Assembly: GCA_022710975.1 (NCBI GenBank)
Contig: JAKLGA010000009.1
Coordinates: 181,547 to 245,546 of the forward strand
Origin: Myxococcota bacterium
Lineage (GTDB): Bacteria > Myxococcota > B64-G9
DNA: 64,000 bases
Direction: 5' to 3'
Shown: piece after piece, positions 4,523-60,759 of the stretch
Layout: the number at the start of each line of letters is the position of its first letter
Position numbering within the stretch: position 1 is the first letter of the stretch
Program-made: the position numbers and the translations under genes
The notes under the pieces: model-generated
The model's input: the letters and a program-made list of their open reading frames with translations, nothing else
What the model was told of the DNA's origin: nothing
The model's database searches: none

Positions 4523-4550
4523 TCCGCGGCGCCTGGAGCGGGAGGAGAAC

Positions 4551-27828: not shown

Positions 27829-28289
27829 AGCCATTCGTACATCTCCCCGCCGTAGATCATGATGAGCAGCAGCTTGACCAGCACGCCCGAGGTCAGCAGG
27901 GTGGCGGAGGTCTCCACCACGCCCTGGCGGTCGAGCCACATCGCCACCAGGCCCGGGATGATGTAGCCGATGGCGTGGAGCTGGTAGGTCTGCCCGCCGA
28001 GGTCGATCTGCATGAAACCGCGGAACAGCATACCCAGCATGAAGCCCACCAGGATGATCACCACCGTGCGACGCCGGCCGAAGAGGATCATGAACGTGCT
28101 CATGACCCGCACGATCAGGTAGGCCACCACCCCGAGCACGAGCGTCATCAGCACGGCCACCGGGTTGGTCAGGTTGAGCGCGATGTAGCCTGGCACCACC
28201 ATGCCGCCCGCGGCCAGCCCGAGGGTCTCCGAGAAGACCAGGCTGACCACCAGGCCGATGCCGATGGCGTTGGGGATGAGGTCTTCCAA
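27825..28289 (-). CDS. pgsC: Poly-gamma-glutamate synthesis protein PgsC/CapC
   Basis: TTG start preceded by an AAGGAG RBS 9 nt upstream. Aligns along its length with B. subtilis PgsC (DLIPNAIGIGLVVSLVF...GGMVVPGYIALNL...FMILFGRRR...GYIIPGLVAMW). Confidence 0.75.
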   Translation of the reverse strand: MEDLIPNAIGIGLVVSLVFSETLGLAAGGMVVPGYIALNLTNPVAVLMTLVLGVVAYLIVRVMSTFMILFGRRRTVVIILVGFMLGMLFRGFMQIDLGGQTYQLHAIGYIIPGLVAMWLDRQGVVETSATLLTSGVLVKLLLIMIYGGEMYEWL

Positions 28290-28305
28290 GGGGTTCTGCT
28301 CCTTG

Positions 28306-39700: not shown

Positions 39701-42700
39701 TCAGCTGCAGTAGCCGTACTCCCAGGTGTTGTAGTATTCCCAGCAGCCGTACACGTACGAGTAGCACTCCGTGCCGCAGACGTACTGGCCGGAGCTCGTG
39801 TCGCACTCGCAGATCTGGTCGTAGTCGCAGTCCGCCAGGCCAGCGGGGCACTGGCACACCCCGCCCACGCAGATCTGGTTGTAGGAGCACAGCGGGCTGC
39901 CGGTGCAGCCGCCCACGGAGCAGTGGTCGCTTATCGTGCAGGCGTCGCCGTCGTCGCAGGGGGAGGCGTTGGGGGGGTTGGCGCAGCCGCCGCCGGCCGG
40001 CCAGCACTCGTCGTCGGTGCAGGGGTTGCCGTCGTCGCAGCTCAGCTTCGAGCCGCTCTGGCAGCAGGCCTCGCCCGCGGCGCCGTTGCAGGTGTCGCCC
40101 GCGGTGCAGGCGTCGCCGTCGGAGCAGGCGGCGGTGCTGGGCACGTAGCTGCAGCCCGAGCCGTCGTTGCAGTAGTCGTCCGAGCAGGGGTTGCCGTCGT
40201 CGCAGCTCGCGAGCAGGGCGCCGCCGCTGCAGGAGGTGCCCTGGCAGGTCTGCGCGTACCAGGCCAGACCGCTGCAGTAGGTCGAGCCGCACGGGAGGCC
40301 GTCGCCCGCCGCCGGGTAGCTGCAGCCGGCGCCCCCGTCGCAGCTGTCCGCGGTGCAGGGGTTGGGGTCGCCGCAGACCTGGATGATCTCGCTCCCGCCG
40401 CACTGCCCGCTCTGGCAGGTCTGGCGGCGCCACTCCAGCCCGCTGCAGGAGCGCGCTCCGCACTCCATCCCGTCGCTCACCGGGGGATGGACACAGCCTG
40501 AGCCCGGGTCGCACACGTCGCTGGTGCAGGGGTTCCAGTCCTCGCAGTCCGGCGCCACGCCGGCGACGCAGCTCGGGCTCTCGCACCGCTCCGGCCCGTT
40601 GCAGGCGTTGCCGTCGTCGCATTGCCAGTCCGAGGTGCAGGACTGGCAGACGGTGTCCGCACCATCGACGGCCCCGTCGCAGTCGTTGTCCAGCCCGTCC
40701 GCGCAGGTGGCCGAGCCCAGCGGTCCCTCGGTCGCTCCCGGGTGGATGGTGTTGTTCTGGTCATCGCAGTCCTGGCCGCAGGGCGGCGGGGCGTGGCCGT
40801 CGGAGTCGGCGTCGATGGCCTGGCCGGCGCAGGTCCCGCCGGCGCAGGCGTCGCCGCTGGTGCAGGCGTCGAGGTCGTCGCACGGCGCCGTGTTGTGGCT
40901 GTGCGTGCAGCCGTTCGCGTCGCAGCCGTCGTCGGTGCAGGGATCGCCGTCGTCGCAGGCGCTCGCATCCGGGCTGAAGACGCAGCCCGCGCCCTGGTCG
41001 CAGGTGTCGAGGGTGCAGGGGTCGCCGTCGTCGCAGGTCCGCGGCGTGCCCTGGCAGCTCGCGCCGACGCAGGTGTCGCCCTCGGTGCAGGCGTTGCCGT
41101 CGTCGCAGCCCCCGCCGGTGGAGACGTGGGAGCAGCCCTGCTGGGGATCGCAGAGATCGTCGGTGCAGGGGTTGCCGTCGTCGCAGCGCTCCAGGCACGA
41201 GCGGCAGGCCTGCGGGGAGCCCAGCGCGGTTTCGCAGCCCGGGCTGGCGTCGCAGTCGCCCTAGCCGGGCTCGCAGGCGCAGGCGCTGAGCTGGCAGGTC
41301 GCGCGCGAGCCGCAGACCCGCTCGCAGGAGCCGCAGTGCTGCGGGTCGTTGCTCAGATCGACGCAGGCGGTGCCGCAGCAGAAGCTGGCCTGGGTCCCGG
41401 GGCAGTCCGGCCCCGTGCCGCCGCAGGCGCAGGTCGCTCCGGTGCAGAGCTCGCCGCTGTCGCAGGTGGTGCCGTTGCAGGCCTGGCCGTTGCAGAGGCC
41501 GCCCTCGCAGCCGTAGGGGCAGTCCTCGGGGACCTCCGTGTACTGGCAGACGCCGTCCGCGCACTGGCCGGGGACCTCGAAGCGGACGCGCGCGTCGCCG
41601 CGGCACTCGGCCGGCGGCGGCTGGTCGCAGCCCTGGAGCTGTCCGTGGCACTCCTCGGCCTGGCAGACATCGCCCTGGGTGCAGGCGTCCCCGTCCGTGC
41701 AATCCTGGCCCCCGGGCGCCCAGGCGGGCTGCAGCGCGGCCGGATCGAACAGGCAGCGGAAGGTGCCCCAGGCGCACTGACGCGCCTGGCACTGGAGGGC
41801 CTCGGTGCAGATTTCACGCGGGCAGCACAGGCCATCCTCGCAGCGCTGCCAGTCCGCGCACTCCACACCCACGCAGAGCCTGGGCGCGCACACCCCCCCG
41901 GCGCACACCTCGCCCGCGCCGCAGGGCGTCGCCCCGCAGGCCAGCGGGTAGCAGGCGCCGGCCGCGCACTCCTCGCCCGAGGCGCAGGTCACCTGGGCGC
42001 ACGAACGCGGGACGCAGGCGCCCTCGAAACAGACCTCGAGGCCTTCGACGCAGTCCAGCTCCGGGCAGTCCGCCTCCAGGCACCAGCCGTTGGCGCATTC
42101 GAGGGCGCCGCAGTCGACCTGGCCGCAGCTGCGCTGGACGCAGGCGCCGTCCACGCAGATCTCGTCGTGGCCGCTGCAGAGCTCCTCGGTGCACTCGCTC
42201 GGGTAGCAGCGACCGCCGCTGCAGACCTGGCCGGTCGGGCAGACCACCTCAGCGCACGAGCGATCGCGGCACTCGTCCTCGATGCACACCTCGCCGTAGC
42301 CGGCGCACAGCCTGGTGGGGCAGTCCCTGGGGTAGCACCTGCCCGCGGCGCAGACCTGGCCGGTCGGGCACTGGACCGCGAGGCAGGAGGCCGGGGTGCA
42401 ATCCTCCTGCACGCACACCTCGCCCAGCCCGGGGCAGTTGCGCCAGTCGCAGGCCGACGGGTAGCAGTGCCCGTTGGCGCAGCCCTCGCCCGGGGGGCAC
42501 TCCACCCACAGGCAGGCCACCTCCTGGCAGGTCTCTCCGAGGCAGACGTGGCCGGGCGGGCAGCTCCGATCCGTGCAGCTCGTGGGCAGGCACTCGCCCC
42601 GGACCACGATCCCGTCCGGGCAGCTCCCGATCTCGCCGGAGTCGCAGCCGGCCGGACCCAGCACCAGGGACAGGCACGCGACCGCGAGCATGACGCGCAG

Positions 42701-42706
42701 TGCCAT
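39701..42706 (-). pseudogene. Cysteine-rich repeat lipoprotein, paralog of 42829..47589. It is interrupted by an in-frame amber codon at 41261-41263 and is otherwise a continuous frame of about 1000 codons.
   Basis: The same frame (coordinates congruent mod 3) runs on both sides of the TAG. ...CACEPG*GDCDASPGCETALGS aligns to the paralog's ...GCQPGFGDCTLDPGCETTLGS, with the TAG at the F position. There are no ATG/GTG/TTG codons between the TAG and 40558, which is why the ORF table splits the gene. GAGGAG RBS before the second ATG (MALRVMLAVACLSLVLGPAGC signal). Confidence 0.6.
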
Positions 42707-42828
42707 CGCTCCGCTCCTCGTCTGCATGACGACGGGGTCATTCTAGCCCAGATCGGCGGAATCCGCGATGCGAGGGCAGGAGCCAGGCCCGGAGCCAGGC
42801 CCGGCGGCGGTCCCGGGCGAACCGCGCC

Positions 42829-45800
42829 TCAGTAGTAGCAGGTGATGTAGCCGCTGCAGCCCGGGTAGTAGTACTCGTCGTAGCAGCAGTAGTAGTAGTT
42901 CGTGTCGCACTCGCAGATCTGGTCGTAGTCGCAGTCCTCGAGGCCGGCCGGGCACTGGCACACCCCGCCCACGCAGATCTGGTTGTAGGAGCACAGCGGG
43001 CTGCCGGTGCAGTTGCCCCCGGAGCAGTAGTCGCCGGTGGTGCAAGGGTCGCCGTCGTCGCACGGACCGGGCTTGGCGGGGTAGGCGCAGCCGGTGGCCG
43101 GGTAGCAGTCGTCGTAGGTGCAGATGTTCCCGTCGTTGCAGGGCGGCGTCACGTTGGGGTCGAACTGCGGGTGGCAGCAGGCCTCGCCCTGGGCGCCATT
43201 GCAGTAGTCGTTGGCCCCGGTGCAGGCGTCGCCGTCGGAACAGGGGTTGGTGTTGGGCACGTAGCTGCAGCCCGAGCCGCCGTTGCAGTAGTCGGTGGAG
43301 CACACGTTGGCGTCGTTGCAGTTCTGGATGAGCGCGCTCGACGAGCAGGCGCCCGACGTGCAGGTCTGGCGGCGCCACTCCAGGCCGCTGCAGTAGCGCG
43401 AGCCGCACTCGGTGCCGTTGGCGACGTTCGCGTTCGTGCAGCCGCTGGCGGCCGCGCAGGAGTCGTTGGTGCACTGCTGGCTGTCGTTACAGTTCTGGAT
43501 GAGCGCGCTCGACGAGCAGGCGCCCGACGTGCAGGTCTGGCGGCGCCACTCCAGGGCGTTGCAGTAGCGCGAGCCGCACTCGGTGCCGTTGGCGACGTTC
43601 GCGTTCGTGCAGCCGCTGGCGGCCGCGCAGGAGTCGCTGGTGCACTCGATGCCGTCGTTGCAGTTCTGCAGCCCCATGTCGCCGGAGCAGGTGCCGCTCT
43701 GGCAGGTGTGGGCGTACCACGCCAGGCCGATGCAGTAGCGCGCGCCGCACTCGGTACCGTTGGCGACGTTCGCGTTCGTGCAGCCGCTGGCGGCCGCGCA
43801 GGAGTCGTTGGTGCACTGCTGGCCGTCGTTGCAGTTCTGCACCAGGGCGTTGCCGCTGCAGGCGCCGCTCACGCAGGACTGCATGCGCCACTCCAGGCCG
43901 TTGCAGTAGCGCGAGCCGCACTCGGTGCCGTTGGAGGCGTTGGGGTTGGAGCAGCCGCTGGCGGCGGCGCACGAGTCGGTGGTGCACTGGTTGGCGTCGT
44001 TGCAGTTCTGCTGCAGCGCGCTCGACGAGCAGGCGCCGGACAGGCAGGTCTGGCGGCGCCACTCGAGGCCGTTGCAGAAGCGCGCGCCGCACTCGATGCC
44101 GTTGGCCACCGCGACGTTGGAACAGCCGCTGGCCGCGTTGCAGGTGTCGCTGGTGCACTCCTGGCCGTCGTTGCAGTTCTGCTGCAGCGCGGAGCCCGAG
44201 CAGGAGCCGGACTGGCAGGTCTGGCGGCGCCACTCGAGCGAGCTGCAGAAACGCGCGCCGCACTCGATGCCGTTGGCCACCGCGACGTTGGAGCAGCCGC
44301 TGGCCGCGTTGCAGGTGTCGCTGGTGCACTCCTGGCCGTCGTTGCAGTTCTGCTGCAGCGCGGAGCCCGAGCAGGAGCCGGACTGGCAGGTGTGGCGGCG
44401 CCACTCGAGGGAGCTGCAGTAGCGCGCGCCGCACTCGATGCCGTTGGCCACCGCGACGTTGGTGCAGCCGCTGGCGGCGTTGCAGGAGTCGCTGGTGCAG
44501 TCCTCGATGTCGTTGCAGTTCTGTTGGAGCGCGTTGCCCGTGCAGGCGCCGGACTGGCAGGTCTGCCGGCGCCACTCCAGGCCGTTGCAGTAACGCGCGC
44601 CGCACTCGGTGCCGTTGGCGACCGCCGAGTTGGTGCAGCCGCTGGCGGCCGCGCAGGCGTCGCTGGTGCACGCCTGGCCGTCGTTGCAGTCCTGGGCGAC
44701 GGCGGTGCCCGAGCAGGTGCCCGACTGGCAGGTCTGCATGCGCCACTCCAGGCCGTTGCAGGAGCGCGAGCCGCACTCGGTGCCGTTGGGGAAGCTCGGG
44801 TGGCTGCAGCCCGTGGCGGCCGAGCAGGCGTCGTTGGTGCACTGGTTGGCGTCCGCGCAGTTCTCGAGCAGGCTGTTGCCGGTGCACTGACCCGCCTGGC
44901 AGGTCGGCACCCGCCACTCGAGCGCGTTGCATACCCGCGCGCCGCACTCGGTGCCGTTGGCCAGGTTCACGTGCTGGCAGCCCAGGGCCTGATCGCAGGA
45001 GTCCGTGGTGCAAGGGTTGCCGTCGTCGCAGTCGAGCGCTGTGCCCGAGGTGCAGTTGGGCGGGTTGCAGCCCTCGACGCCGTTGCAGGCGTTGCCGTCG
45101 TCGCACTGCTCGGGCAGGGTGCAGCTCTGGCAGGTCGAGTCCGCGCCGTCGGTGGTGCCGTCGCAGTCGTTGTCCAGGCCGTCCGAGCAGACCTGCGCGC
45201 CGAGCGGGCCCTCTGGCATGCCGGGGTTCACGTTCGGGTTGTCGTCCAGGCAGTCGCCGCCGCAGGGCGGCGGCTGGTGGTCGTCGCCGTCGGCGTCGAT
45301 GAGGGTGCCCGCGCAGGCGCCGCCCGCGCAGGTGTCCCCCGCGGTGCAGGCGTCGCCGTCGTTGCAGGGGGCGGTGTTGTTGGCGTGGGTGCAGCCGCTG
45401 GCCGAATTGCAGCCGTCCGTGGTGCAGGGGTTGCCGTCGTCGCAGTTCCTGGGCGCGCCGCTGCAGGCGGCGCCGGAGCACGCGTCGTTGATGGTGCACT
45501 CGTCGGCGTCGTCGCAGGCGTCGGCGTTCGGGTTGTAGGTGCAGCCCGTGGCCGGGTCGCAGCCGTCGTCGGTGCAGTCGTTGCCGTCCGTGCAGGTCCG
45601 GGGCGCCCCGGCCTGGCACGCGCCGCCGGAGCAGGCGTCGCCCTGGGTGCACTCGTTGCTGTCGCTGCACGGACCCGTGTTGTTCGCGTGGGTGCACTCG
45701 CCGGTGCCCGGCTCGCAGCCGTCGTCGGTGCACGGGTTGCCGTCGTCGCAGCTCGAGCCGCCGGTGAACACGCACACGCCGCCCTGGCAGTGGTCGCCCG

Positions 45801-47589
45801 TGGTGCAGCCGTCGTTGTCGCTGCAGGCGGCCGCGTCGTCGTTCACGTGCTGGCACTGGCCGCTGGCCGGGTTGCAGTCGTCCTGGGTGCAGGCGTTGAG
45901 ATCGTTGCAGTCCTTGGGAACTCCCTGGCAGGTGCCGCCCGAGCACGTGTCGCTGTCGGTGCAGGCGCTGGCGTCGTCGCAGGCCCCGGTGTTGGGGGCG
46001 TGCTGGCAGCCCAGCTGCGCGTCGCAGCTGTCGTCGGTGCAGGGGTTGTTGTCCTCGCAGCTCTCCTGGCAATCGCGGCAGAAGGTCAGGCTGCCGAGCG
46101 TGGTCTCGCAGCCCGGGTCGAGGGTGCAGTCGCCGAAGCCGGGCTGGCACCCGCAGATCTGGCCAGCGCAGCTCCCGTTCGGGCCGCACAGGTTGTCGCA
46201 GCCGCCGCAGTTCTGGCTGTCCTGGGTCAGGTCAACGCAGACCGCGCCGCAGCAGAAGCTGGAGGTGTCGCCGGCGCAGTCCGGGCCGGTGCCGCCGCAG
46301 CGGCACTCCGTCCCCACGCACTGCTCGTTGGGAGAGCACTGGATCCCGTTGCACATCGCGCCGATGCACTGCCCGTCGGTGCAACCCTCGGGGCAGTCCT
46401 CGACCACCTCGGCGTACTGGCAGCTCCCGTCCACGCACGTCCCCGGGGAGCGGAAGCTCACGCGCTGGTCGCCCCGGCACTCGGGCTGCGGCGGCTGGTT
46501 GCAGGCCAGCGGCGTCCCCCGGCACTCATCCTGGGCGCACACGTCTCCCTGGGTGCAGCCGTCGCTGTCGGTGCAGTCCTCCCCCTCGGTCGCCCACACG
46601 GTCTGCTGCGTGGCCGGGTCGTACTGGCAGCGGAAGTTCCCCCAGCCGCAGGCGCTCGTGCTGCACTGCAACCCCGGGGTGCAGGTCTCAGGTGGGCAGC
46701 AGGCGCCGGCCTCGCATCGCTGCCAGGTGGCGCAGTCCACCCCCACGCACAGGCGCAGCTCGCAGGCTCCGCCGGCGCAGACCTCGCCCGACGGGCAGGG
46801 GGTGTCTCCGCAGGTGAGCGGGTAGCAGGCACCAGCCGCGCACGCCTCGTCGGCGCCGCAGGTCACGTGGGCGCACGAGCGGGGGACACACGTCCCCTCG
46901 AAGCAGATCTCCAGCCCGTCCAGGCAGTCCTGGCCGGACTCGGTACAGTCCGCCGGGAAGCACCAGCCGTTGGCGCACTGCAGGTCGCCGCAGTCGACGT
47001 TGGCGCAGGTGCGCTCGGAGCACACGCCGTCGACGCACACCTCGTTGTAGCCGTGGCAGTTCTCCAGGCCGCACTCGGTCGGGTAGCAGCGCCCGCCGGA
47101 GCAGGTCTGCCCGGCGGGGCAGGTCACCCCGGCGCAGGAGCGTTCCTGGCACTCGTCCTCGATGCACACCTCGCCGTAGCCGGCGCACACCTTGGTGGGG
47201 CAGTCCTTGGGGTAGCATCGGCCCGCGGCGCAGACCTGGCCGGCCGGGCACTGGACCGCGATGCAGGAGGCCGGGGTGCACTCCTCCTCCACGCACACCT
47301 CGCCCAGGCCGGGGCAGTTGCGCCAGTTGCAGGCCGAGGGGTAGCAGACCCCATTGGCGCAGCCCTCTCCCGGGGGACACTCCACCCACAGGCAGGCCAC
47401 TTCCTGGCAGATCCCGCCCAGGCAGACCGAGCCTGGCGGGCAGGTCCGATCCTCGCACGTCGTGGGCAGGCACTGCCCGTTGACCACCACGCCGTCAGGG
47501 CACTGGGACGAGATGGTGCCGGGATCGCAGCTGCCCAGCCCGAGGCACGGCGCGAGGAACATGAGGTAGCGAAGGCGGGACTGGCTCAT
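42829..47589 (-). CDS. Giant cysteine-rich repeat lipoprotein (1586 aa): a Cys-rich N-terminal domain, TIGR02232-type DGNxCT repeats, about ten 56-aa tandem repeats, and a Tyr-rich C-terminus
   Basis: GAGGAG RBS before the ATG. Signal MFLAPCLGLGSC. Repeat unit NGTECGSRYCNGLEWRRQTCQSGACSGNALQQNCNDGQQCTNDSCAAASGCTNANVA. C-terminus CECDTNYYYCCYDEYYYPGCSGYITCYY. Confidence 0.8.
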   Translation of the reverse strand: MSQSRLRYLMFLAPCLGLGSCDPGTISSQCPDGVVVNGQCLPTTCEDRTCPPGSVCLGGICQEVACLWVECPPGEGCANGVCYPSACNWRNCPGLGEVCVEEECTPASCIAVQCPAGQVCAAGRCYPKDCPTKVCAGYGEVCIEDECQERSCAGVTCPAGQTCSGGRCYPTECGLENCHGYNEVCVDGVCSERTCANVDCGDLQCANGWCFPADCTESGQDCLDGLEICFEGTCVPRSCAHVTCGADEACAAGACYPLTCGDTPCPSGEVCAGGACELRLCVGVDCATWQRCEAGACCPPETCTPGLQCSTSACGWGNFRCQYDPATQQTVWATEGEDCTDSDGCTQGDVCAQDECRGTPLACNQPPQPECRGDQRVSFRSPGTCVDGSCQYAEVVEDCPEGCTDGQCIGAMCNGIQCSPNEQCVGTECRCGGTGPDCAGDTSSFCCGAVCVDLTQDSQNCGGCDNLCGPNGSCAGQICGCQPGFGDCTLDPGCETTLGSLTFCRDCQESCEDNNPCTDDSCDAQLGCQHAPNTGACDDASACTDSDTCSGGTCQGVPKDCNDLNACTQDDCNPASGQCQHVNDDAAACSDNDGCTTGDHCQGGVCVFTGGSSCDDGNPCTDDGCEPGTGECTHANNTGPCSDSNECTQGDACSGGACQAGAPRTCTDGNDCTDDGCDPATGCTYNPNADACDDADECTINDACSGAACSGAPRNCDDGNPCTTDGCNSASGCTHANNTAPCNDGDACTAGDTCAGGACAGTLIDADGDDHQPPPCGGDCLDDNPNVNPGMPEGPLGAQVCSDGLDNDCDGTTDGADSTCQSCTLPEQCDDGNACNGVEGCNPPNCTSGTALDCDDGNPCTTDSCDQALGCQHVNLANGTECGARVCNALEWRVPTCQAGQCTGNSLLENCADANQCTNDACSAATGCSHPSFPNGTECGSRSCNGLEWRMQTCQSGTCSGTAVAQDCNDGQACTSDACAAASGCTNSAVANGTECGARYCNGLEWRRQTCQSGACTGNALQQNCNDIEDCTSDSCNAASGCTNVAVANGIECGARYCSSLEWRRHTCQSGSCSGSALQQNCNDGQECTSDTCNAASGCSNVAVANGIECGARFCSSLEWRRQTCQSGSCSGSALQQNCNDGQECTSDTCNAASGCSNVAVANGIECGARFCNGLEWRRQTCLSGACSSSALQQNCNDANQCTTDSCAAASGCSNPNASNGTECGSRYCNGLEWRMQSCVSGACSGNALVQNCNDGQQCTNDSCAAASGCTNANVANGTECGARYCIGLAWYAHTCQSGTCSGDMGLQNCNDGIECTSDSCAAASGCTNANVANGTECGSRYCNALEWRRQTCTSGACSSSALIQNCNDSQQCTNDSCAAASGCTNANVANGTECGSRYCSGLEWRRQTCTSGACSSSALIQNCNDANVCSTDYCNGGSGCSYVPNTNPCSDGDACTGANDYCNGAQGEACCHPQFDPNVTPPCNDGNICTYDDCYPATGCAYPAKPGPCDDGDPCTTGDYCSGGNCTGSPLCSYNQICVGGVCQCPAGLEDCDYDQICECDTNYYYCCYDEYYYPGCSGYITCYY
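43250..44950. repeat. Tandem array of about ten 168-bp near-identical repeats inside the CDS 42829..47589
   Basis: Blocks such as GCACTCGGTGCCGTTGGCGACGTTCGCGTTCGTGCAGCCGCTGGCGGCCGCGCAGGAGTCGTTGGTGCACTGCTGGC recur with few substitutions. Each encodes a 56-aa Cys-rich module. Confidence 0.8.
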
Positions 47590-47757
47590 GTCCGGTCTCC
47601 TCTCGGCATACCGATCTGCTGGGGAGATTCTAACCTGTTTACGAGCATTTGAACAGCGCGGCCGGGCAGCTCGGCCGGGGAGCGCGCGCGCCGCCTTCGC
47701 CCTTGAACCAGCCTGGGGCTCGGGCTATCCTCAGAGGCCGATTCCCTGGAGGTCTGC

Positions 47758-48788: not shown

Positions 48789-50831
48789 ATGCCTGTACAC
48801 AAGCCGAGCCCGAACCCGACGCCGTCTCCGGAACTCGGCGATCGGCAGATCCTGCGCGCGCTGCTGGAGGCCGCCGTGCCGCTCGAGGAGGGGCCGGCCT
48901 GGGACGTGCGCTTCCGCCACCTGGCCTTCGACCCGGAGCGTCTGACCGCGCGGCTGCTGGAGCTGGCCCGGGAGGCGGGCGTGCGGACCACGCGCCGGCT
49001 GGTGCAGCGCTTCGCCGCGGACTTCGCCGGGCGGGTGCGGCTGCGCGTGTCGCGGACGGATCCCGTGCCCGTGCGCTGGATGCACGGGGAGGTCAAGGTG
49101 CCGCGCTGGTTCCTGGCCGAGCTCCTGGGGGTGGTGGGCACGGAGCTGCTGCCCACCCGGCGCCAGGCCCGCCAGGCGGCGTTCGACGCAGCCAGGGAGG
49201 TGGCCTACTTCGGCGCGGGTGGGATCGGCGAGCAGATCCTGCCGCACCCGGTCGCGCTGGTGCGGGCCGCCCTGGCCGGCGAGGAGGCGCTGCGCCTGGA
49301 GCCGGTGCTGCTCGAGGAGGAGAGCCCGCCCCGGCGCTGGACGGTCTACGATCTGCTGCGCCTGGACGAGGACTTCCACCGCCAGGCGGACGGGGAGGCA
49401 GAGCTGGGCCGCTTCCAGACCCGGCTGCGCGAGGATCCCCTGGACGGCACCACGGTGGGCAAGCTGAGGGCCTTCTTCGACAAGCGGGCCACCGTGGGGC
49501 TGCGGGACACCGCCCGCTGGGCGCTCGGCTCGCGCCACCCCTGGTTCGGTTGGAAGCGGGCCCGGGAGCAGATCGCGGCCTGCTTCGAGCGCCACGGGGA
49601 TGCGAGCTTCCTCTCGCCGCGCGTGAGCCTGTACCTGCCCGACCTGGAGCTCGAGGCGCAGGAGCTCGCCGCCATGCAGGCCGACTGCCAGCGGGCCGCC
49701 GAGCTGTTCGCCGCGCGGGTGGCCGAGCAGCTGCCGCCGGAGCTGGCGACGGCGCTCGGCCAGGATCGGCTGGTGCGCCTGGCGCTGGCCGCCCTGGACT
49801 GCCACCACGACAACCCCGACTTCGACCTGGAGGTGCCCGAGCTGCCAAGCGGGCAGACCACCCTGTCGTTCCTCGGGCACGCCCTGGGGGTGCTGGTGCG
49901 CTCCGCCCGCGGCCAGGAGCAGGCCCCGCGGCGGAACACCAACCTGCGCGGCCACCTGAGCGCCATGGGCGTCACCCAGGCGGTGCTGGGCGACCTGGCC
50001 GAGGCCGAGCAGGAGGTCGTGCTCGCCGCCATGCAGGGGGTGCTGCACGACTACACCTCGCGCACCGGGCTGCAGGACGCGACCGGCCGGCCGCAGATCT
50101 ACCGTCGGCCGCCCCACATCCTGTACACCTTCTACGCCACCCCGGAGGCCCAGCCGAGGGACGGCGAGGAGCTCCTGGACTCGTTCAGCCTGGCCGAGCT
50201 CCAGGAGCCGCAGCACGCCCAGCACCTGCGCCAGCAGCCCGAGGTGTTCGAGCGGCTGGTCGTGTTCTTCACCCTGGTGCTGCGCCACTACCTGGACACC
50301 GCCCACGCCCCCGATCTCATGCCCGAGCGCCTGGGCCGCGACTTCGTGCTGCTCGGCCTGTGGGGCACCGGCACGCCCAACGTGCGGGTGCACCTGTTCC
50401 GCCACAGGAAGAGCGGCAAGGTGCGCAGCGAGGTGGTCTACCAGGGTCGCAGCCAGGTCCAGGCGCTGCGGCCCCACCGCGATCGGCGCCACGAGGCCGC
50501 CTTCGCCCGGCTGCTGGTGAACCAGCTCGGGCCGCTGGTGGAGCCGAGCATGTTGCGCGCCATCGGGGCCTACCTGATGGCCTCCGAGCAGCACCGCGAG
50601 GGCACCCACTTCCAGAAGGTCGGGGCGCTGGCATTCGCCCGCCAGTCGCTGGAGGTCTTCCGCGAGGCGGCCCGCACCGGCATCCAGGGCGCGCTGGTGG
50701 ACACGGCCACGACCGCCGAGATGCTGGTGGACAACGCAGTCGACTACGCGCTCAAGGGCCTGGATCGCGCGGCGCGCCTGGGCGACCACCTGCCTGGCAA
50801 GTCCACCGACCGCGAGCCGTCCAGCACCTGA
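48789..50831 (+). CDS. Hypothetical protein, 680 aa, probably in an operon with the upstream lipid kinase
   Basis: GAGGAG RBS; 27 nt after the kinase stop; strong GC3 bias. No domain recognised. The upstream in-frame extension in the ORF table (47649..) is a shadow. Confidence 0.55.
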   Translation: MPVHKPSPNPTPSPELGDRQILRALLEAAVPLEEGPAWDVRFRHLAFDPERLTARLLELAREAGVRTTRRLVQRFAADFAGRVRLRVSRTDPVPVRWMHGEVKVPRWFLAELLGVVGTELLPTRRQARQAAFDAAREVAYFGAGGIGEQILPHPVALVRAALAGEEALRLEPVLLEEESPPRRWTVYDLLRLDEDFHRQADGEAELGRFQTRLREDPLDGTTVGKLRAFFDKRATVGLRDTARWALGSRHPWFGWKRAREQIAACFERHGDASFLSPRVSLYLPDLELEAQELAAMQADCQRAAELFAARVAEQLPPELATALGQDRLVRLALAALDCHHDNPDFDLEVPELPSGQTTLSFLGHALGVLVRSARGQEQAPRRNTNLRGHLSAMGVTQAVLGDLAEAEQEVVLAAMQGVLHDYTSRTGLQDATGRPQIYRRPPHILYTFYATPEAQPRDGEELLDSFSLAELQEPQHAQHLRQQPEVFERLVVFFTLVLRHYLDTAHAPDLMPERLGRDFVLLGLWGTGTPNVRVHLFRHRKSGKVRSEVVYQGRSQVQALRPHRDRRHEAAFARLLVNQLGPLVEPSMLRAIGAYLMASEQHREGTHFQKVGALAFARQSLEVFREAARTGIQGALVDTATTAEMLVDNAVDYALKGLDRAARLGDHLPGKSTDREPSST

Positions 50832-52038: not shown

Positions 52039-55000
52039 TCAGCGCGCCCTGCGCCGGAGCACCAGCGCCAGGGCCAGCCCCAGGCCGAGCAGGCCGGCCT
52101 CCAGGGGCGAGCTCGAGGCTCCGCACACGCAGCCGCCGCCGCTCACGTGTGTCAGGTCCGGATCGCTGGCGCCGCCGTCGCCCCCGTCCTGTCCGGGCTG
52201 GCACACCCCGGCCTGGCATGTCCCGTCCGGACAGGCCGTCCCCTCCGGGAGCGCTGCGTGCCGGCAGGCGCCGTCGGCCGCTTCGCAGCCGTCCTCGGTG
52301 CACGGGTTGCCGTCGTCGCAGGCGAGCGGGGTCCCGGCGCACACGCCGGCCAGGCAGGCGTCGGCCGAGGTGCAGCCGTCGCCGTCGTCGCAGGGGGTGG
52401 CGTCGGGCCGGTCCACCAGGGAGCAGGCGCCCGTCGCCGGGTCGCAGGCCGCCTGGCGGCAGTCCGTGTCGGCGGTGGGATCGCACACCACCACGGTCGC
52501 GGGATCCACCACGCAGGCGGGGCTCTGGCAGACCAGGGTGCCGTTGCACAGGTCCGCGTCCTCGAAGGGCGCGCAGTCCGCGTCCGCGCTGCACTGGCAG
52601 GTGTTGGCTCCGGGCTGGCAGGCGCCGGCCGCGCAGGTGTCGCCCCCGGTGCAGGGGTTGCCGTCGTCGCAGGGGGCGCTGTTCGGGGAGAAGGCGCAGC
52701 CCGCGGCGGGCTCGCAGCCGTCGTCGGTGCAGGGGTTGGCGTCGTCGCAGACGAGCGGGGCACCCACCTGGCAGCCGAGGAGCGGATCGCAGCTCTCCAC
52801 GCCGTTGCAGGTGTCGCCATCGTCGCAGGCGAGCGGGGTGCCGGTGCACACGCCGGCCAGGCAGGCGTCGGCCGAGGTGCAGCCGTCGCCGTCGTCGCAG
52901 GGGGTGGCGTCGGGCCGGTCCACCAGGGAGCAGGCGCCCGTCGCCGGGTCGCAGGCCGCCTGGCGGCAGTCCGTGTCGGCGGTGGGATCGCACACCACCA
53001 CGGTCGCGGGATCCACCACGCAGGCGGGGCTCTGGCAGACCAGGGTGCCGTTGCACAGGTCCGCGTCCTCGAAGGGCGCGCAGTCCGCGTCCGCGCTGCA
53101 CTGGCAGGTGTTGGCTCCGGGCTGGCAGGCGCCGGCCGCGCAGGTGTCGCCCCCGGTGCAGGGGTTGCCGTCGTCGCAGGGGGCGCTGTTCGGGGAGAAG
53201 GCGCAGCCCGCGGCGGGCTCGCAGCCGTCGTCGGTGCAGGGGTTGGCGTCGTCGCAGACGAGCGGGGTGCCCACCTGGCAGCCGAGGAGCGGGTCGCAGC
53301 TCTCGGCGCCGGTGCAGGCGTCGCCGTCGTCGCAGGCGAGCGGGGTGCCGGCCACGCAGCCCGAGGCCGGATCGCAGCCCTCGAGGCCGTCGCAGACGTC
53401 GCCGTCGTCGCAGATGAGCGGGGTGCCCGGGACGCAGCCCGAGGCCGGGTCGCAGCCCTCGAGGCCGTCGCAGGCGTCGCCGTCGTCGCAGACGAGCGGG
53501 GTGCCCGGCTGGCAGGCGCCGCCGGCGCACGCCTCGTCGCCGTTGCACGTGTCGCCGTCCGGGCAGGGGAGCGTGTTGGGCTCGAAGGCGCAGCCCGTGG
53601 CCGGGACGCAGGAGTCCGTGGTGCAGACGTTGCCGTCGTCGCAGGAGAGCGGCGTGCCGGCCTGGCAGCTCCCGGCGGCGCAGGTCTCGTCGCCGTTGCA
53701 GGCGTTGCCGTCGTCGCAGTCCAGGTCCTGCGCGCACACCGAGCACGAGGGCTGCTCCGCGTCCACGTTCCCGTCGCAGTCGTTGTCCAGGCCGTCGCTG
53801 CAGGTCGGATCGCCCAGGCCGCCCTCGAACATCCCGGGGTTGACGCTGACGTTGCCGTCGTCGCAGTCCACGCCGCCGCAGGCGAAGGGCGCGTAGCCGT
53901 CGTCGTCCGCGTCCAGCGGCGCGCCCTGGCAGGCGCCGAGCGCGCAGGTGTCGCCCTCGGAGCAGGGGTCGCCGTCGTCGCATGGATCGGCGTTGCCGGT
54001 GTAAGCGCAGCCCGTGGCCGGGGCGCACGAGTCCGTGGTGCAGGCGTTGCCGTCGTCGCAGGCGAGCGGCGTGCCCGGCTGGCAGCTCCCGCCGGCGCAG
54101 ACCTCGGCGCCGTTGCAGAGGTCGCCGTCCGCGCAGGAGAGGGTGTTGTCCACTAGCACGCAGCCCGTGAACGGGTCGCACGAGTCCGTGGTGCAGAGGT
54201 TGCCGTCGTCGCAGGCGAGCGGTGTGCCGGCCTGGCAGGTGCCGGCGGAGCAGGCCTCGTCCCCGTTGCAGAGATCGCCGTCCGCGCAGGAGAGGGTGTT
54301 GGGGGCATAGCTGCAGCCCGTGGCCGGGGCGCAGGAGTCCGTGGTGCAGGAGTTGCCGTCGTCGCAGACGAGCGGGGTGCCGGCCTGGCAGGTGCCGGCC
54401 GCGCAGGCCTCGCTGCCGTTGCACTGATCGCCGTCCGAGCAGGAGACCGTGTTGGGGACATTGCTGCAGCCCGTGGCCGGGGCGCAGGAGTCCGAGGTGC
54501 AGACGTTGCCGTCATTGCAGCTCAGCGGTGTGCCGGCCTGGCAGGTGCCGGCGGAGCAGGCCTCGTCCCCGTTGCAGAGATCGCCGTCCGCGCAGGAGAG
54601 GGTGTTGGGGGCATAGCTGCAGCCCGTGGCCGGGGCGCAGGAGTCCGTGGTGCAGGAGTTGCCGTCGTCGCAGACCAGCGGGGCGCCGGCCTGGCACGAG
54701 CCCGCGGAGCAGGCCTCGTTGCCGTTGCAGAGGTCGCCGTCCGAGCAGGGCAGCGCGTTGTTGGCGAAGGCGCAGCCTGTGGCCGGGACGCAGGAGTCGG
54801 TGGTGCAGACGTTGCCGTCGTTGCAGGTGAGCGGCGTGCCGGCCTGGCAGGTGCCGCCGGAGCAGACCTCGGCGCCATCGCAGAGGTCGCCGTCCGCGCA
54901 GGAGGCCGTGTTGGGGACGAAGCTGCAGCCCGTGGCCGGGACGCAGGAGTCCGAGGTGCAGACGTTGCCGTCGTTGCAGGTCAGGGGGGTGCCGGCCTGG

Positions 55001-58000
55001 CAGGCGCCGCCGGCGCAGACCTCGCTGCCGTTGCACAAGTTGCCATCCGCGCAGGAGGCCGTGTTGGGGACGAAGCTGCAGCCCGTGGCCGGGACGCAGG
55101 AGTCGGTGGTGCAGACGTTGCCGTCGCTGCAGGTCAGGGGGGTGCCGGCCTGGCAGGCGCCGCCGGCGCAGACCTCGCTGCCGTTGCACAAGTTGCCGTC
55201 CGCGCACGAGGCCGTGTTGGGGACGAAGCTGCAGCCCGTGGCCGGGACGCAGGAGTCCGTGGTGCAGACGTTGCCGTCGTTGCAGACGAGCGGGGTGCCA
55301 GACTGGCAGGTGCCGCCGGAGCAGACCTCGTCGCCGTCGCAGAGGTCGGCGTCCGCGCAGGAGGCCGTGTTGGGGACGAAGCTGCAGCCCGTGGCCGGGA
55401 CGCAGGAGTCCGTGGTGCAGACGTTGCCGTCGTTGCAGGTGAGCGGCGTGCCGACCTGGCAGGTGCCGCCGGAGCAGACCTCGGCGCCATCGCAGAGGTC
55501 GCCGTCCGCGCAGGAGGCCGTGTTGGGGGCAAAGCTGCAGCCCGTGGCCGGGACGCAGGAGTCGGTGGTGCAGACGTTCCCATCGTTGCAGGTCAGGGGA
55601 GTGCCGGCCTGGCACGCGCCCGCGGCGCAGACCTCGCTGCCGTTGCACAGGTTGCCGTCGGGGCAGGGCAGGGTGTTGTTGGCGTAGGCGCAGCCCGTGG
55701 CCGGGTTGCAGGAGTCGGTGGTGCAGAGGTTGCCGTCGTCGCAGGTGAGCGGGGTGCCGGCCTCGCACGAGCCGGCGGCGCAGATCTCGTCGCCGTTGCA
55801 GGCGTTGCCGTCCGAGCAGTCGCCGTTGCCCGAGCAGACCGAGCACGACGGCTGCTCCAGGTCGGTGTTGCCGTCGCAGTCGTTGTCCAGCCCGTCGGCG
55901 CACGTGGGATCGCCCAGCCCACCCTCGAAGGCGCCGGGGTTGACGGCGGGGTCGGTGTCGTCGCAGTCCGTGCCGAGGCAGGCCAGCGGCACGTAGGTGT
56001 CGCCGTCCGCGTCCAGCGGGTCGCCCTGGCAGGTGCCGGCCGCGCAGGCGTCGGCCATGGTGCAATCGTCGGCGTCGTCGCAGGGGCCGGTGTTGGCGGG
56101 GTAGGCGCAGCCCGTGGCCGGGACGCAGGAGTCCATGGTGCAGACGTTGCCGTCGTTGCAGACGAGCGGGGTGCCGGCCTGGCACGAGCCGCCGGAGCAT
56201 GCCTCAGCGCCGTCGCAGAGGTCGCCGTCCGGGCAGGGCAGGGTGTTGTTGGCGTAGCTGCAGCCCGTGGCCGGGACGCAGGAGTCCGTGGTGCAGACGT
56301 TGCCGTCGTTGCAGACGAGCGGGGTGCCGGCCTGGCACGAGCCCGCGGAGCAGGCCTCGTTCCCGTTGCACAGGTCGCCGTCCGGGCAGGGCAGGGTGTT
56401 GTTCGCGTTGCTGCAGCCCGTGGCCGGGACGCAGGAGTCCGTGGTGCAGAGGTTGCCGTCGTTGCAGACGAGCGGGGTGCCGGCCTGGCAGGAGCCCGCG
56501 GCGCAGACCTCGTTCCCGTTGCACAGGTTCCCGTCTGGGCAGGGGACGGTGTTGTTGACGTTGCTGCAGCCCGTGGCCGGGACGCAGGAGTCCGTGGTGC
56601 AGAGGTTGCCGTCGTTGCAGGTGAGCGGCGTGCCGGCCTGGCACGAGCCCGCGGAGCAGGCCTCGTTGCCGTTGCAGAGGTCGCCGTCCGGGCAGGGCAG
56701 CGCGTTGTTGGCGTAGGCGCAGCCCGTGGCCGGGACGCAGGAGTCCGTGGTGCAGAGGTTGCCGTCGTTGCAGGTGAGCGGCGTGCCGGCCTGGCAGGAG
56801 CCCGCGGAGCAGACCTCGTTCCCGTTGCACAGGTTCCCGTCTGGGCAGGGGACGGTGTTGTTGACGTTGCTGCAGCCCGTGGCCGGGACGCAGGAGTCCG
56901 TGGTGCAGACGTTCCCGTCGTTGCAGACGAGCGGGGTGCCGGCCTGGCAGGAGCCCGCGGAGCAGACCTCGTTGCCGTTGCAGAGGTTGCCGTCCGGGCA
57001 GGGCAGGGTGTTGTTCGCGGTGCTGCAGCCCGTGGCCGGGACGCAGGAGTCCGTGGTGCAGAGGTTGCCGTCGTCGCAGACCAGCGGGGTGCCGGCCTGG
57101 CAGGAGCCCGCGGCGCAGACCTCGTTCCCGTTGCACAGGTTGCCGTCTGGGCAGGGGACGGTGTTGTTGACGTTGCTGCAGCCCGTGGCCGGGACGCAGG
57201 AGTCCGTGGTGCAGACGTTGCCGTCGTTGCAGACGAGCGGGGTGCCGGCCTGGCAGGAGCCCGCGGAGCAGACCTCGTTCCCGTTGCAGAGGTTGCCGTC
57301 CGGGCAGGGCAGGGTGTTGTTCGCGGTGCTGCAGCCCGTGGCCGGGACGCAGGAGTCCGTGGTGCAGAGGTTGCCGTCGTTGCAGACCAGCGGGGTGCCG
57401 GCCTGGCAGGAGCCCGCGGAGCAGACCTCGTTCCCGTTGCACAGGTTGCCGTCCGGGCAGGGCAGGGTGTTGTTCGCGGTGCTGCAGCCCGTGGCCGGGA
57501 CGCAGGAGTCCGTGGTGCAGAGGTTGCCGTCGTCGCAGACCAGCGGGGTGCCGGCCTGGCAGGAGCCCGCGGCGCAGACCTCGTTCCCGTTGCACAGGTT
57601 GCCGTCTGGGCAGGGGACGGTGTTGTTGACGTTGCTGCAGCCCGTGGCCGGGACGCAGGAGTCCGTGGTGCAGACGTTGCCGTCGTTGCAGACGAGCGGG
57701 GTGCCGGCCTGGCAGGAGCCCGCGGAGCAGACCTCGTTCCCGTTGCAGAGGTTGCCGTCCGGGCAGGGCAGGGTGTTGTTCGCGGTGCTGCAGCCCGTGG
57801 CCGGGACGCAGGAGTCCGTGGTGCAGACGTTCCCGTCGTTGCAGACCAGCGGGGTGCCGGCCTGGCAGGAGCCCGCGGCGCAGACCTCGTTCCCGTTGCA
57901 CAGGTTCCCGTCCGGGCAGGGCAGGGTGTTGGTGACGTTGCTGCAGCCCGTGGCCGGGACGCAGGAGTCCGTGGTGCAGAGGTTGCCGTCGTCGCAGACC

Positions 58001-60759
58001 AGCGGGGTGCCGGGCAGGCAGCTGCCTGTGGCGACCACGCAGGTCTCCGCACCGTTGCAGGCGTCCCCGTCGTCGCAGTCCGGATCGCCGGTACAGGTGG
58101 CCGGCTCCTTGATCCAGATCTGGAGGTTGTCCAGCCGGCAGCCGGCCTGGTTGACGGTGTAGTCGGTGTACGAGCGGAAGCGGAAGTAGACGGTGTCGTA
58201 GCCGATCAGCGGGGTGAGGTTCACCTCCTGCGCGCCGCTGGCGGTGCCGGTGAAGCCGGTGATGATCCGCCACTGGACGTTGTCCAGGCTGTACTCCCAG
58301 ATCAACCAGTCATAGTTCTGCTCGTAGGCGCAGGACACCAGGTCGAAGCTGATCGAGGCGGACACCGCGTCGCTCAGATCGACCCCGGCCGAGAAGGTGG
58401 CCGAGGAGCGGTTGTTGTCTCGGTAGTTGGCCCCCGGGCTGTCGTCCAGCACCCCGCCCTGCACGGCCCAGGTGGGGGTCAGGGTCCAGTTGGTCGCGTT
58501 GCCGAAGGTCTCGTCGACGACCAGCGTGTCGGGCGCGTCGCCGGCCGCGGTGACGAGGATGTCGTCGAGGTACCACCCGTCCCGGCGGGTGCTGGCGTTC
58601 GACGACAGCCAGAAACGGAGCTGGACCCGCTGGCCGGTCGCGAGGATCGTGCCGGCCCACTCGTGCCAGGTGGTGTTGGTGCCGGTGACCTGATCCACGC
58701 TGGTCCAGGCCGACCAGGTGGCGCCGTCGTAGGTGCGGATCTGGATCCTGCCGTAGTCCGCGTTGGCCTGCAGATCGTAGCGCTGCCAGAAACTGAGCCG
58801 GATCAGCTGATCGTTCGCCACGATCTCGGGCGAGACCAGGTAGAGGTTGGCGTTGTTCGGATAGTTGCCCCCGGGGCTGTCCGTCCAGCTGTGGGTCGGG
58901 CTGTGGCTCTGAGCGGTGACCTGGCCCCAGTCTCCGGTCCAGCCGTTGAGCCCCCCCTCGACGTCGTCGTCGAGCAGGACGGTCTCGGCGGGTGTGGTGA
59001 TGACCACCACGTTCGACAGGGCGCTCCGGTTGCCGGCGTTGTCCACCACCTCGAGGCCGAAGCGGTAGGTCGTCCCCGGCGAGAGGCCGCCGATGGTGAA
59101 GTTGTCCACCTGCCCGACCGGGGACGGGGTCCACAGCCCGAGGATCGGCTCGGCCGTGGCGTAGTCGAAGGTGGCGCCCTCGGCCACCCGCAGGTCGTAG
59201 TAGTTGGCCTGCCCCGCGTTGCCGTCGTCGCCCGTGGCGGTCGTGCGCAGGAGCACCCGCCGGCTCTGGGTGAGGTGCACGCCGAGGGTGGGCGTGGCCG
59301 GGGCGGTCGCGTCTTCCTCGACCAGGTTGAAGACGTTGAGGTGCCCACCGGTGACCGACAGGCCGGCCAGCGAGGCCCAGCGCTGGCTGCGATCCATGAG
59401 CCGCTGGCGGATGGCGCTCACCCGCTGGACCTGGGTCATGCCCGCCCAGCCGGTGATCAGGTTCGGCGCCAGGCCGTACACGATGGCCGCCGCGCCCGAG
59501 GCGTGGGGCGCGGCCATCGAGGTCCCGCTCCACGACAGCCAGACGCTGTTGGCGGTGTCCCACATGCAGATCTGGTAGAGGCTCTCGGGGTAGCCGGTCA
59601 GGATGTTCGGGGTGGTGGAGACGATCTCCTCGCCCGGGGCGTAGAGGTGGACCGTGTTCAGGCCGTAGTTGGAGAACAGCGAGCCGTCGCCCCAGGCGCT
59701 GGAGGCGCCGACCGAGATGACGTTCTCGTAGGGGTAGTTGCCCGGGTAGGAGGGCGTGGTGTCGTTGTCGGTGCCGTCGTTGCCCGACGCGACCACGAAG
59801 ACCACACCCTGGTCACGCGCCGCGGCGATCGCCGCGGCCAGGCTCGCGTCGTAGGCGCCGCCACCCCAGCTGTTGTTGAGCACCTTGGCGCCGTTGGTGA
59901 CGCCGTAGTTGATCGCCGCGATGGCGTTGGCGGTGCTGCCGCCGGTCGGCCCGATGAACCGCAGCGCCATGATCTGGACGTTGGTCGTGGTGCCGTAGAC
60001 GCCGATCGAGTTGTGGATCGCGGCGATGGCCCCGGCCACGTGGGTGCCGTGGCTGTCCTCGTCCATCGGGTTCGTGTCGTTCGAGTAGAAGTCGTAGCCG
60101 AGGCCCGGCCACATCACCGCGGCCAGGTCCGGGTGGGTGTAGTCCACGCCGGAGTCGATGACCCCGACGATGATCGTGCTCGGGGTGAAGCCGCGCCGGG
60201 CGATCTCGTCGTTGGCCTCCGGGGTGTCCATGTCCATGTCGGCCACGCGCGGATCCGGGTTGTACAGGCCGGCGTTCCCCTGGAAGGGCGCGTTGCCGCC
60301 CAGGTTCCGGTGGGCCCAGGCCATGTTGAAGTAGGGATCGCTGGGGACCTCGCTGGGGAAGTAGAGGTAGTTGGGCTGGGCGGCCTCCACCCCGGGTTGC
60401 TTGGTCAGCTCCGCGATGGCCTGCTCGACGTCCACGCCGCTGGTCAGGCGCAGCAGGTAGGTGCGGTTGAGCGTGGATTCCGGCGCGGACTCGAACCGCA
60501 GACGTCGCTCGACGCGGTGGCCCAGCGCCCCGGCCATGGCCTGCGCGGCACCCTCCTCCTGCCCTGCTCGCAGGGTGACCAGGACCTCGTCCACCACCCA
60601 GGCCGCCTTCGTTCCGGCGCGCCGCGGCGAGGGCTTCTGGACGGCCAGCTCCTCCGTGGAGACGCCGGGGCCCGGCTCCCCCGCGCCGTCGCACGACGGG
60701 CCGACCAGGGCGAGCAGGACGAGGGCCGCGGACGGGATCGCGATGGCTTTCGAGGGCAT
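52039..60759 (-). CDS. Giant (2906 aa) secreted subtilisin-like S8 peptidase, then an FN3-like domain, two jelly-roll-like domains, about 50 tandem 36-aa cysteine-rich repeats, and a MYXO-CTERM tail
   Basis: GGAGG RBS 6 nt before the ATG at 60759. Signal [18 protein letters not shown]8 catalytic blocks [13 protein letters not shown] (Asp), DSHGTHVAG (His), NNSWGG (oxyanion Asn) and [11 protein letters not shown] (Ser). Repeats are of the [51 protein letters not shown] type. C-terminus [33 protein letters not shown]. Confidence 0.85.
52150..58040. repeat. Tandem array of about 50 repeats of 108 bp (36 aa) inside the S8 giant gene; many adjacent copies are identical at the nucleotide level
   Basis: The unit ...GGTGCAGACGTTGCCGTCGTTGCAGACGAGCGGGGTGCCGGCCTGGCAGGAGCCCGCGGAGCAGACCTCGTTCCCGTTGCAGAGGTTGCCGTCCGGGCAGGGCAGGGTGTTGTTCGCGGTGCTGCAGCCCGTGGCCGGGACGCAGGAGTCCGT recurs almost exactly between about 56.2 and 58.0 kb. 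More diverged copies run down to about 52.2 kb. Confidence 0.85.

Follow-up and report, generated by a model that had tools for sequence, protein, structure and literature searches.

We analyzed a gene for a large cysteine-rich repeat protein that lies in a 64,000-nucleotide (nt) stretch of contig JAKLGA010000009.1 (assembly GCA_022710975.1, a Myxococcota bacterium), hereafter referred to as the window. The gene contains a tandem array of ten in-frame modules of 57 residues each, and its product is a bacterial Dicty_CTDC protein. A first-pass annotation of this DNA had noticed the repeats, described them as near-perfect copies of a 168-bp unit with an invariant N-G-T tripeptide, and raised the possibility that they were glycosylated. 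Our analysis points instead to a reading in which the array would form a stiff stalk, adjustable in length, in a protein of the surface or matrix of uncultured Myxococcota, and we put the probability of this reading at about 0.6.

A tandem array of ten units in a cysteine-rich protein

Tandem Repeats Finder returned one strong array at 43285..44961, with a period of 171, 9.8 copies, 83% matches, 2% indels, and a score of 1765. Placed in the protein register, the array comprised exactly ten consecutive head-to-tail units, covering residues 878-1447 of a minus-strand open reading frame (ORF), that is, window positions 44958..43249. The coding strand of the array, on which the first-pass annotation was silent, is the minus strand. 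A plus-strand ORF of 1,493 codons (43171..47652) was considered as the gene and rejected: it is an Ala/Gly/Val/Arg-rich, low-complexity mirror ORF of a 71% GC sequence and matched no family. The features of the array gene are as follows.

42829..47589, minus: complete gene, 1,586 residues, stop codon TGA, cysteine-rich repeat protein (ORF, Pfam Dicty_CTDC)
47527..47589, minus: signal peptide with lipobox-like L-G-S-C (Cys21, Asp at +2), read by eye
46030..47502, minus: N-terminal ~500 residues, a string of ~21-residue Cys-rich beta-hairpins without Pfam match (AlphaFold, comparison)
44959..46029, minus: ordinary Dicty_CTDC-type repeats and a D-x-D/'DGLDNDCDG' stretch, matching only module positions 18-56
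43249..44958, minus: array, ten in-frame 171-bp/57-residue units (Tandem Repeats Finder, register, alignment)
44958-44788, minus: unit 1
44787-44617, minus: unit 2
44616-44446, minus: unit 3
44445-44275, minus: unit 4
44274-44104, minus: unit 5
44103-43933, minus: unit 6
43932-43762, minus: unit 7
43761-43591, minus: unit 8
43590-43420, minus: unit 9
43419-43249, minus: unit 10
44104..44445, minus: latest duplicate pair, units 4 and 5 (98-nt exact run, 97% nt identity)
43249..43590, minus: all between-assembly variation falls here, in units 9 and 10 (N1344S/A1345G allele, unit loss in contig L001, hybrid unit in contig L006)
42832..43248, minus: C-terminal 139 residues, CTDC-like repeats then a Tyr/Cys-rich tail (…NYYYCCYDEYYYPGCSGYITCYY), distal from the putative lipid anchor

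The place of the array and the copy number of about ten given by the first-pass annotation were borne out, and its consensus peptide was essentially correct. The period, however, is 171 bp and 57 residues rather than 168 bp and 56 residues; indeed, the consensus string that it gave counts 57 residues. Nor are the copies near-perfect. Pairwise identity among the ten units ranged from 67 to 97% for DNA (mean 78%) and from 49 to 96% for protein (mean 68%), and only units 4 and 5 were a few substitutions apart, with 5 of 171 nt differing. In the window allele, the longest exact run at the 171-nt offset was 98 nt. Nineteen columns were invariant across the ten units, eight of them Cys, and the reading frame and all 80 array Cys were intact. 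E14, W15, and R16 were invariant or nearly so within the array; C34, D36, C40, D43, C45, G50, and C51 were found in 10/10 units and T41 in 9/10.

Cysteine accounts for 245 residues of the whole protein (15.4%). The sole family matched was Pfam PF00526 Dicty_CTDC, with 177.5 bits (gathering threshold, 27 bits), E = 3.3e-53, and 15 stretches. At E <= 0.1, an NCBIfam search returned no family, including TIGR04201 (TraA type) and the MYXO-CTERM model TIGR03901, and Pfam reported no MopE-type metal-binding motif. The N-terminus reads MSQSRLRYLMFLAPCLGLGS-C21-D, in which L-G-S-C is near the lipobox consensus [LVI][ASTVI][GAS]C, as judged by eye and not by a predictor. The same Cys-Asp end occurred in the paralogue (P-A-G-C-D) and in the orthologue (S-P-G-C-D) described below, both less canonical as lipoboxes. 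Going by these residues, the protein is probably anchored by a lipid at its N-terminus. At the other end, the C-terminus (…GCSGYITCYY) contains no hydrophobic helix and does not show the Cys motif, transmembrane helix, and Arg-rich tail of MYXO-CTERM proteins.

The N-terminal ~500 residues are common to the paralogue (77.6% nt identity) and to about a dozen metagenomic proteins (36-52% amino acid identity), and most members of this family are without Pfam annotation (P0033, P0247, P0028, P0056, P0074, and others). An AlphaFold model of the N-terminal 520 residues, with a predicted local distance difference test score (pLDDT) of 79, showed a string of ~21-residue hairpins for which no PDB neighbor was found. 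The exact sequence of the 1,586-residue protein is recorded in NCBI, JGI, and GEM assemblies, and its 90% cluster includes an entry named 'MAG TPA: hypothetical protein [Myxococcota bacterium]'. The best relative outside that cluster was only 36% identical, and no orthologue of the array gene turned up in scans of the representative genomes of GTDB. A promoter and terminator scan of 39.5-48 kb found nothing.

The module combines a four-cysteine sheet with a Dicty_CTDC hairpin

Each module has two parts. The first reads G-x-E-C-G-x-R-x-C-x-G-L-E-W-R-x-x-T-C-x-x-G-x-C, with the Cys spacing C-x4-C-x9-C-x4-C; the second is one Dicty_CTDC hairpin, C-N-D-x-x-x-C-T-x-D-x-C-x-x-x-x-G-C. Units 3-5 were modeled with AlphaFold2 from a 31-row alignment of tandem triplets, which gave a pLDDT of 97.0 and a predicted template modeling score of 0.71. 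The model was all-beta, with five strands per unit: a three-stranded antiparallel sheet (residues 4-11, 14-21, and 24-33) followed by the CTDC hairpin (41-46 and 50-55). The N-G-[T/I] tripeptide was placed in the short linker between units. Sequence searches with the protein or with the unit profile found no relative of solved structure. The best structural match, from Foldseek, was a weak one (E = 8.6e-3, probability 0.87), to PDB 9gjb, the Gal/GalNAc lectin heavy chain of Entamoeba histolytica, in its Cys-rich region.

When 1.84 billion representative proteins were searched with a profile built from the ten units (E <= 0.001), 1,357 of them matched. Most of these matches covered profile positions 18-56 only, that is, the C-x-x-G-x-C strand and the Dicty_CTDC hairpin. 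The full 57-residue module was present in about 60 of the retrieved metagenomic proteins, usually in tandem at a spacing of 53-61 residues, with a highest count of 24 copies in one 4,637-residue protein. Within the window, it was confined to the array gene (10 copies) and the paralogue (2 copies). Position 15 was aromatic in about 75% of the family modules. The first half of the module, that is, its first 33 residues, lies outside the coverage of Pfam and NCBIfam, and the module is a recurring 57-residue composite variant of the Dicty_CTDC repeat.

Several known systems bear comparison with the array. The second half of the unit fits the pattern C-x5-C-T-x-D-x-C-x4-G-C of the Dicty_CTDC proteins, which comprise PsiA/DicA1 and matrix or coat proteins of Dictyostelium and many bacterial proteins, mostly from Myxococcota. 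Like these, the array protein is Cys-rich, tandemly repeated, variable in repeat number, and presumably extracellular. Unlike the Pfam repeat, its unit starts with the 33-residue three-stranded sub-module with four Cys and G-L-E-W-R; the usual bacterial Dicty_CTDC unit, as in a subtilase of the window, is about 51 residues long with a first half of C-x5-C-T-x-x-D type, and the Dictyostelium proteins differ further in not coming from a bacterial host. No solved structure was found for either the 51- or the 57-residue form. In the surface receptor TraA of Myxococcus xanthus, Cys-rich tandem repeats were proposed to form a rigid stalk, and their resemblance to PF00526 was noted (PMC3325183); two of these repeats are dispensable (PMC6626042). 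The array protein resembles TraA as a myxobacterial, apparently secreted protein whose tandem Cys-rich repeats are read as a stalk. It differs in having no TIGR04201 or MYXO-CTERM match and no PA14 head, in its longer unit with eight Cys, and in its putative anchor, an N-terminal lipobox-like signal instead of a C-terminal tag. The Entamoeba lectin region, whose borderline fold match is the only one to a solved structure, belongs to a surface protein and consists of disulfide-bonded beta-hairpins strung into an elongated chain, to which the array may be likened. In the Rib/alpha-C and SasG/Aap stalks of bacterial surface proteins, which vary in repeat number, long in-frame DNA units encode whole-domain repeats, and in-register recombination alters stalk length. 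The array shares this layout of whole-domain repeats in long in-frame units; yet those repeats are typically near-identical in DNA, Ig-like or G5-E, and devoid of disulfides, whereas the array units average 78% identity.

Units were gained, lost, and reshuffled between paralogue and species

Directly downstream of the array gene lies a second gene of the same overall plan.

39701..42727, minus: tandem paralogue, ~1,008 codons in a single frame, with a TAG inside it at 41261-41263

The paralogue carries only two 57-residue modules (40474-40133), which start with D-G-M and D-G-L. Its TAG aligns to the F of 'QPGFGDC' in the array gene, and the 519 codons past it keep a perfect Cys scaffold. The paralogue is either the product of a recent nonsense mutation or a truncated lipoprotein of 488 residues.

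A related species, represented by two metagenomic contigs (L004, JGI 3300010356, Ga0116237_10013431; and L005, JGI 3300009690), has a single orthologue with the same flanking genes and ten units, each distinct in sequence. In L004, this gene spans 1677..5855. Compared with L004, units 1, 2, 7, and 10 of the window were positional orthologues with 88, 80, 92, and 88% nt identity, respectively, and the other interior units were not. Each species had its own recent pair, units 4/5 in both (97% in the window and 95% in L004), and a distinctive 'L-A-W-Y-A-H' unit was eighth in the window and sixth in L004. Turnover of units between the paralogue and the array gene, and between the two species, is thereby shown. 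The recombination and repeat-number change anticipated by the first-pass annotation accordingly hold at these two levels, with two units against ten in the paralogue and a reshuffled interior in the related species; at the level of strains the picture was ambiguous (see below).

In both L004 and L005, an in-frame TAG (GAG to TAG, 'CNGL*WRR') interrupted unit 3 of the orthologue, and gene callers split the L004 copy into ORFs of 650 and 357 residues plus spurious antisense ORFs at a 171-nt spacing. Recoding or suppression of TAG was considered and set aside: TAG is the stop codon of 5 of 23 ordinary genes in the window, the in-frame TAGs of the paralogue and the orthologue stand against different residues (F and E), and the window has no tRNA. 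Recent nonsense mutation is the simpler reading of both.

Between units of the array, the nonsynonymous rate (dN) was about equal to the synonymous one (dS), and between orthologous units dN/dS was 0.26-0.6; these values are used qualitatively only, the units being short and third codon positions 96% GC. The pattern fits a scaffold constrained only at Cys, Gly, and a few core positions.

Copy number between assemblies follows assembler k-mer limits

The ten-unit count of the window is robust. The independent JGI assemblies L002 and L003 were 100% identical to the window over 10.7 kb, with ten units each, and an independently assembled protein from an NCBI metagenome-assembled genome (MAG), P0121, also had ten units and differed only by N1344S and A1345G. 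This 'SG' allele, known only at the protein level since P0121 has no DNA record, and present in the MAG fragment P0123 as well, makes the head of unit 9 identical to that of unit 10; on sequence grounds it looks like gene conversion.

Two otherwise near-identical contigs carried nine units, both in frame. The ENA contig L001 (named k141_…) was base-identical to the window save for the loss of exactly unit 9. The low-coverage contig L006 (3.8x), which starts inside the array, had a different nine-unit junction, with a hybrid unit made of the unit 9 head and the unit 10 tail. In one MAG, the gene breaks at the unit 7/8 boundary, and its two parts (P0122 and P0123) lie at the ends of two contigs. 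The assembly hazard announced by the first-pass annotation is therefore demonstrated, with MAG contigs that end in the array, one contig that begins in it, and two assemblies that give nine units. L006 was the one true relative, against 79 distant ones, in a JGI metagenome scan with the C-terminal region that was swamped by generic Cys-rich patterns.

The same annotation had expected length polymorphism. Nine- and ten-unit forms were indeed seen, but each nine-unit form is also what assembler collapse would yield. With the 'SG' allele, the exact repeat at the 171-nt offset reaches 147 nt, more than k = 141, and the crossover in L006 falls inside a 66-nt exact run, more than a k of 55, which we take to be the usual largest default metaSPAdes k-mer. 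Since the nine-unit forms coincide with exact repeats longer than the likely k, strain-level length polymorphism was seen but is not proven. Judged from the contigs, these forms would be equally expected from in-register recombination and from de Bruijn-graph collapse, and a polymorphism of nine versus ten units between strains is plausible. The locus does not behave as a phase-variable on/off switch: 171 bp make 57 codons, and only length changes.

A probable stiff stalk of adjustable length, and its rivals

We favor the view that the array is a stalk. Four disulfides per module would lock the hairpins, and ten modules in a row would give a stiff, extended stalk that fixes the spacing between the membrane or matrix and the distal, Cys/Tyr-rich C-terminus. 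In-register unequal recombination or slippage would add or remove whole 57-codon modules with the frame kept, while gene conversion would homogenize neighboring units. The outcome would be what is seen in the paralogue (2 versus 10 units), in the reshuffled interiors between species, and possibly in the 9 versus 10 units between populations. Hairpin modules of the disulfide type make up nearly the whole protein. In other Myxococcota proteins, the repeat class is fused to NHL, LamG, Kelch, M4 and S8 peptidases, deacetylases, and other extracellular domains; because it is joined to so many unrelated partners, it behaves as a generic extracellular scaffold.

Some observations weigh against a stalk. 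The near equality of dN and dS between units would also fit relaxed selection, an in-frame TAG is found both in the paralogue and in the related-species orthologue, and genes of the array family may be dispensable or decaying. There is no recognizable functional head at either end of the protein, the L-E-W-R-R face, with its conserved aromatic and charged residues, might bind a ligand instead of serving as scaffold, and both the disulfides and the rigidity are predicted.

The main rival to the stalk is that the modules are binding units, each taking up a polysaccharide, another matrix protein, or a metal. The protein would then be a multivalent adhesin or, like the spore-coat and slime-sheath proteins of Dictyostelium, a matrix protein cross-linked through disulfides, and copy number would tune avidity and not reach. 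The frequent aromatic residue at position 15 and the (nearly) invariant E14, W15, and R16 of the array are consistent with it, as is the weak match to a lectin region in Entamoeba, and in Dictyostelium, Dicty_CTDC proteins form part of the extracellular matrix and of coats (PMC3068167). The protein also offers no other obvious functional domain, neither Pfam nor NCBIfam having found an enzymatic or known binding domain in it. Yet outside the Cys most positions are free to vary, both from unit to unit and from one orthologous unit to the other, no lectin or carbohydrate-binding module family was matched, and the attachment of the repeat class to many unrelated enzymatic and binding domains again speaks for a generic scaffold. 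We therefore hold binding or cross-linking to be possible but clearly less probable than a stalk.

The N-G-T tripeptide is probably a turn between modules

The first-pass annotation took N-G-T to be present in every unit and, given a GT39-family glycosyltransferase in the genome, raised the possibility that the tripeptide is a sequon and that the repeats are glycosylated with the help of that enzyme. Such a gene is indeed present in the window.

~9424..11319, plus: PMT_2 membrane protein (GT-C, 'GT39-type') with C-terminal TPR repeats (PF13231, 35.2 bits, cut-off 26.1)

The classical PMT family PF02366 was not matched by this ORF. As a separate observation, its combination of PMT_2 and TPR is the domain plan of the eukaryotic TMTC O-mannosyltransferases.

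The tripeptide itself proved variable. N-G-T was found in 7/10 units of the array, units 4-6 having N-G-I, in 9/10 units of the related-species orthologue, and in neither of the two paralogue modules. Among 194 full-length modules from 57 other proteins, position 1 was D in 88 and N in 69, position 2 was G in 137, and position 3 was T in 94; N-x-S/T occurred in 33 of the 194 (17%), none with D/E at -2. PglB-type transferases prefer D/E at this position. None of the 11 array sequons had it, the residue there being V, A, F, L, or S, and the one extended sequon of the protein, DPNVT at residue 1479, lies outside the array. The whole protein contains 17 sequons, compared with 16.8 +/- 3.8 expected from composition. 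Since D is commoner than N at position 1 of the junction, the motif is probably a [D/N]-G-T Asx-Gly turn between modules, of which N-G-T is the local form, and not a sequon.

The frequency of N-G-T in the two species and the PMT_2 gene are what glycosylation has in its favor, and T, the commonest residue at position 3 family-wide, would leave O-mannosylation of the junction Thr possible, although nothing points to it. Against it stand, besides the N-G-I units, the D-G-M and D-G-L modules of the paralogue, the excess of D over N in the family, and the chance-level sequon count, the known activity of GT39 enzymes, which attach O-mannose to Ser/Thr and do not modify Asn sequons (PMC11727336). The PMT_2 gene lies 32 kb from the array with no operon link found, and a Pfam scan of ~40 ORFs of the window showed neither an STT3/PglB nor an HMW1C-like gene. 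The suggestion of glycosylated N-G-T repeats is thus very doubtful.

Decay and assembly artefact are improbable

It might also be argued that the array is a relic with no function today, in a gene family that is decaying or being silenced. In-frame TAGs, found in the paralogue and, in two samples, in unit 3 of the orthologue, fit this, as do the high dN/dS values (0.26-1). The array gene is intact, however, over its 1,586 codons with every scaffold Cys present, and the Cys scaffolds are still perfect downstream of both TAGs, from which the lesions appear to be recent. Decay is accordingly a highly improbable account of the array.

Finally, an assembly artefact in the array or its copy number, conceivable given that short-read assemblies fail here (the split MAG, the L006 contig start, the two nine-unit forms) and that assembly errors are known to arise from tandem repeats (PMC6868369), can practically be dismissed: the units are diverged and share at most 98 nt of exact sequence in register, L002, L003, and P0121 agree on ten, the related species independently has ten distinct units, and frame and Cys are intact throughout.

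Neighboring genes and other cysteine-rich proteins of the window

A Pfam scan identified the following genes around the array gene and its paralogue.

47758-48762, plus: diacylglycerol-kinase-like gene, divergent from the array gene
38902-39693, plus: short-chain dehydrogenase
36969-38882, plus: arginine decarboxylase

The window is rich in proteins of the same general type. A 3,251-residue subtilase (Peptidase_S8, 52039..61794, minus) has 29 Dicty_CTDC stretches and two arrays, at 54003-55819 (11.9 copies, 86% matches) and 56107-58021 (12.5 copies, 92%), with a 153-bp/51-residue period and a 459-bp super-period. Its repeats are longer in extent and more uniform than the 171-bp array and represent a bigger assembly and recombination hazard. 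Two more Cys-rich proteins of secreted type are encoded at 1367..4522 (plus) and 15216..17675 (minus), one with nine Dicty_CTDC stretches and the other with a MopE-type 'putative metal-binding motif'. Counting the array gene, the paralogue, and the subtilase, there are at least five such Cys-rich genes in 64 kb.

Other genes stand apart from this group. At 30923..33187 (minus), a 754-residue major-vault-protein-like gene matched MVP_shoulder (E = 1e-30) and Vault_3, here in a bacterial genome. A CapC-family gene (27825..28373, minus) beside a Mur-ligase-like gene (28306..29505, minus) resembles the CapB/CapC pair of poly-gamma-glutamate synthesis, and a thioredoxin-domain protein is encoded at 25427..26137 (minus). 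Three large ORFs of 680-808 residues had no Pfam match (33220..35646, minus; 48789..50831, plus; 4488..6833, plus).

What the array means for uncultured Myxococcota

The array protein belongs to a known class, that of the bacterial Dicty_CTDC cysteine-rich repeat proteins, and as such would not surprise a specialist; its biological significance is modest, and it opens no long-standing question. The most useful outcome is methodological, in that apparent copy-number variants at the array match assembler k-mer limits exactly. In practice, a copy number taken from short-read MAGs at a locus of this kind should not be trusted unless long reads back it. The locus nonetheless displays the birth and remodeling of an array, with two versus ten units, conserved edge units, and a turned-over interior. 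It also brings to light a 57-residue module whose structure is predicted with very high confidence and has no solved counterpart, and which uncultured Myxococcota use in tandem to build large extracellular proteins.

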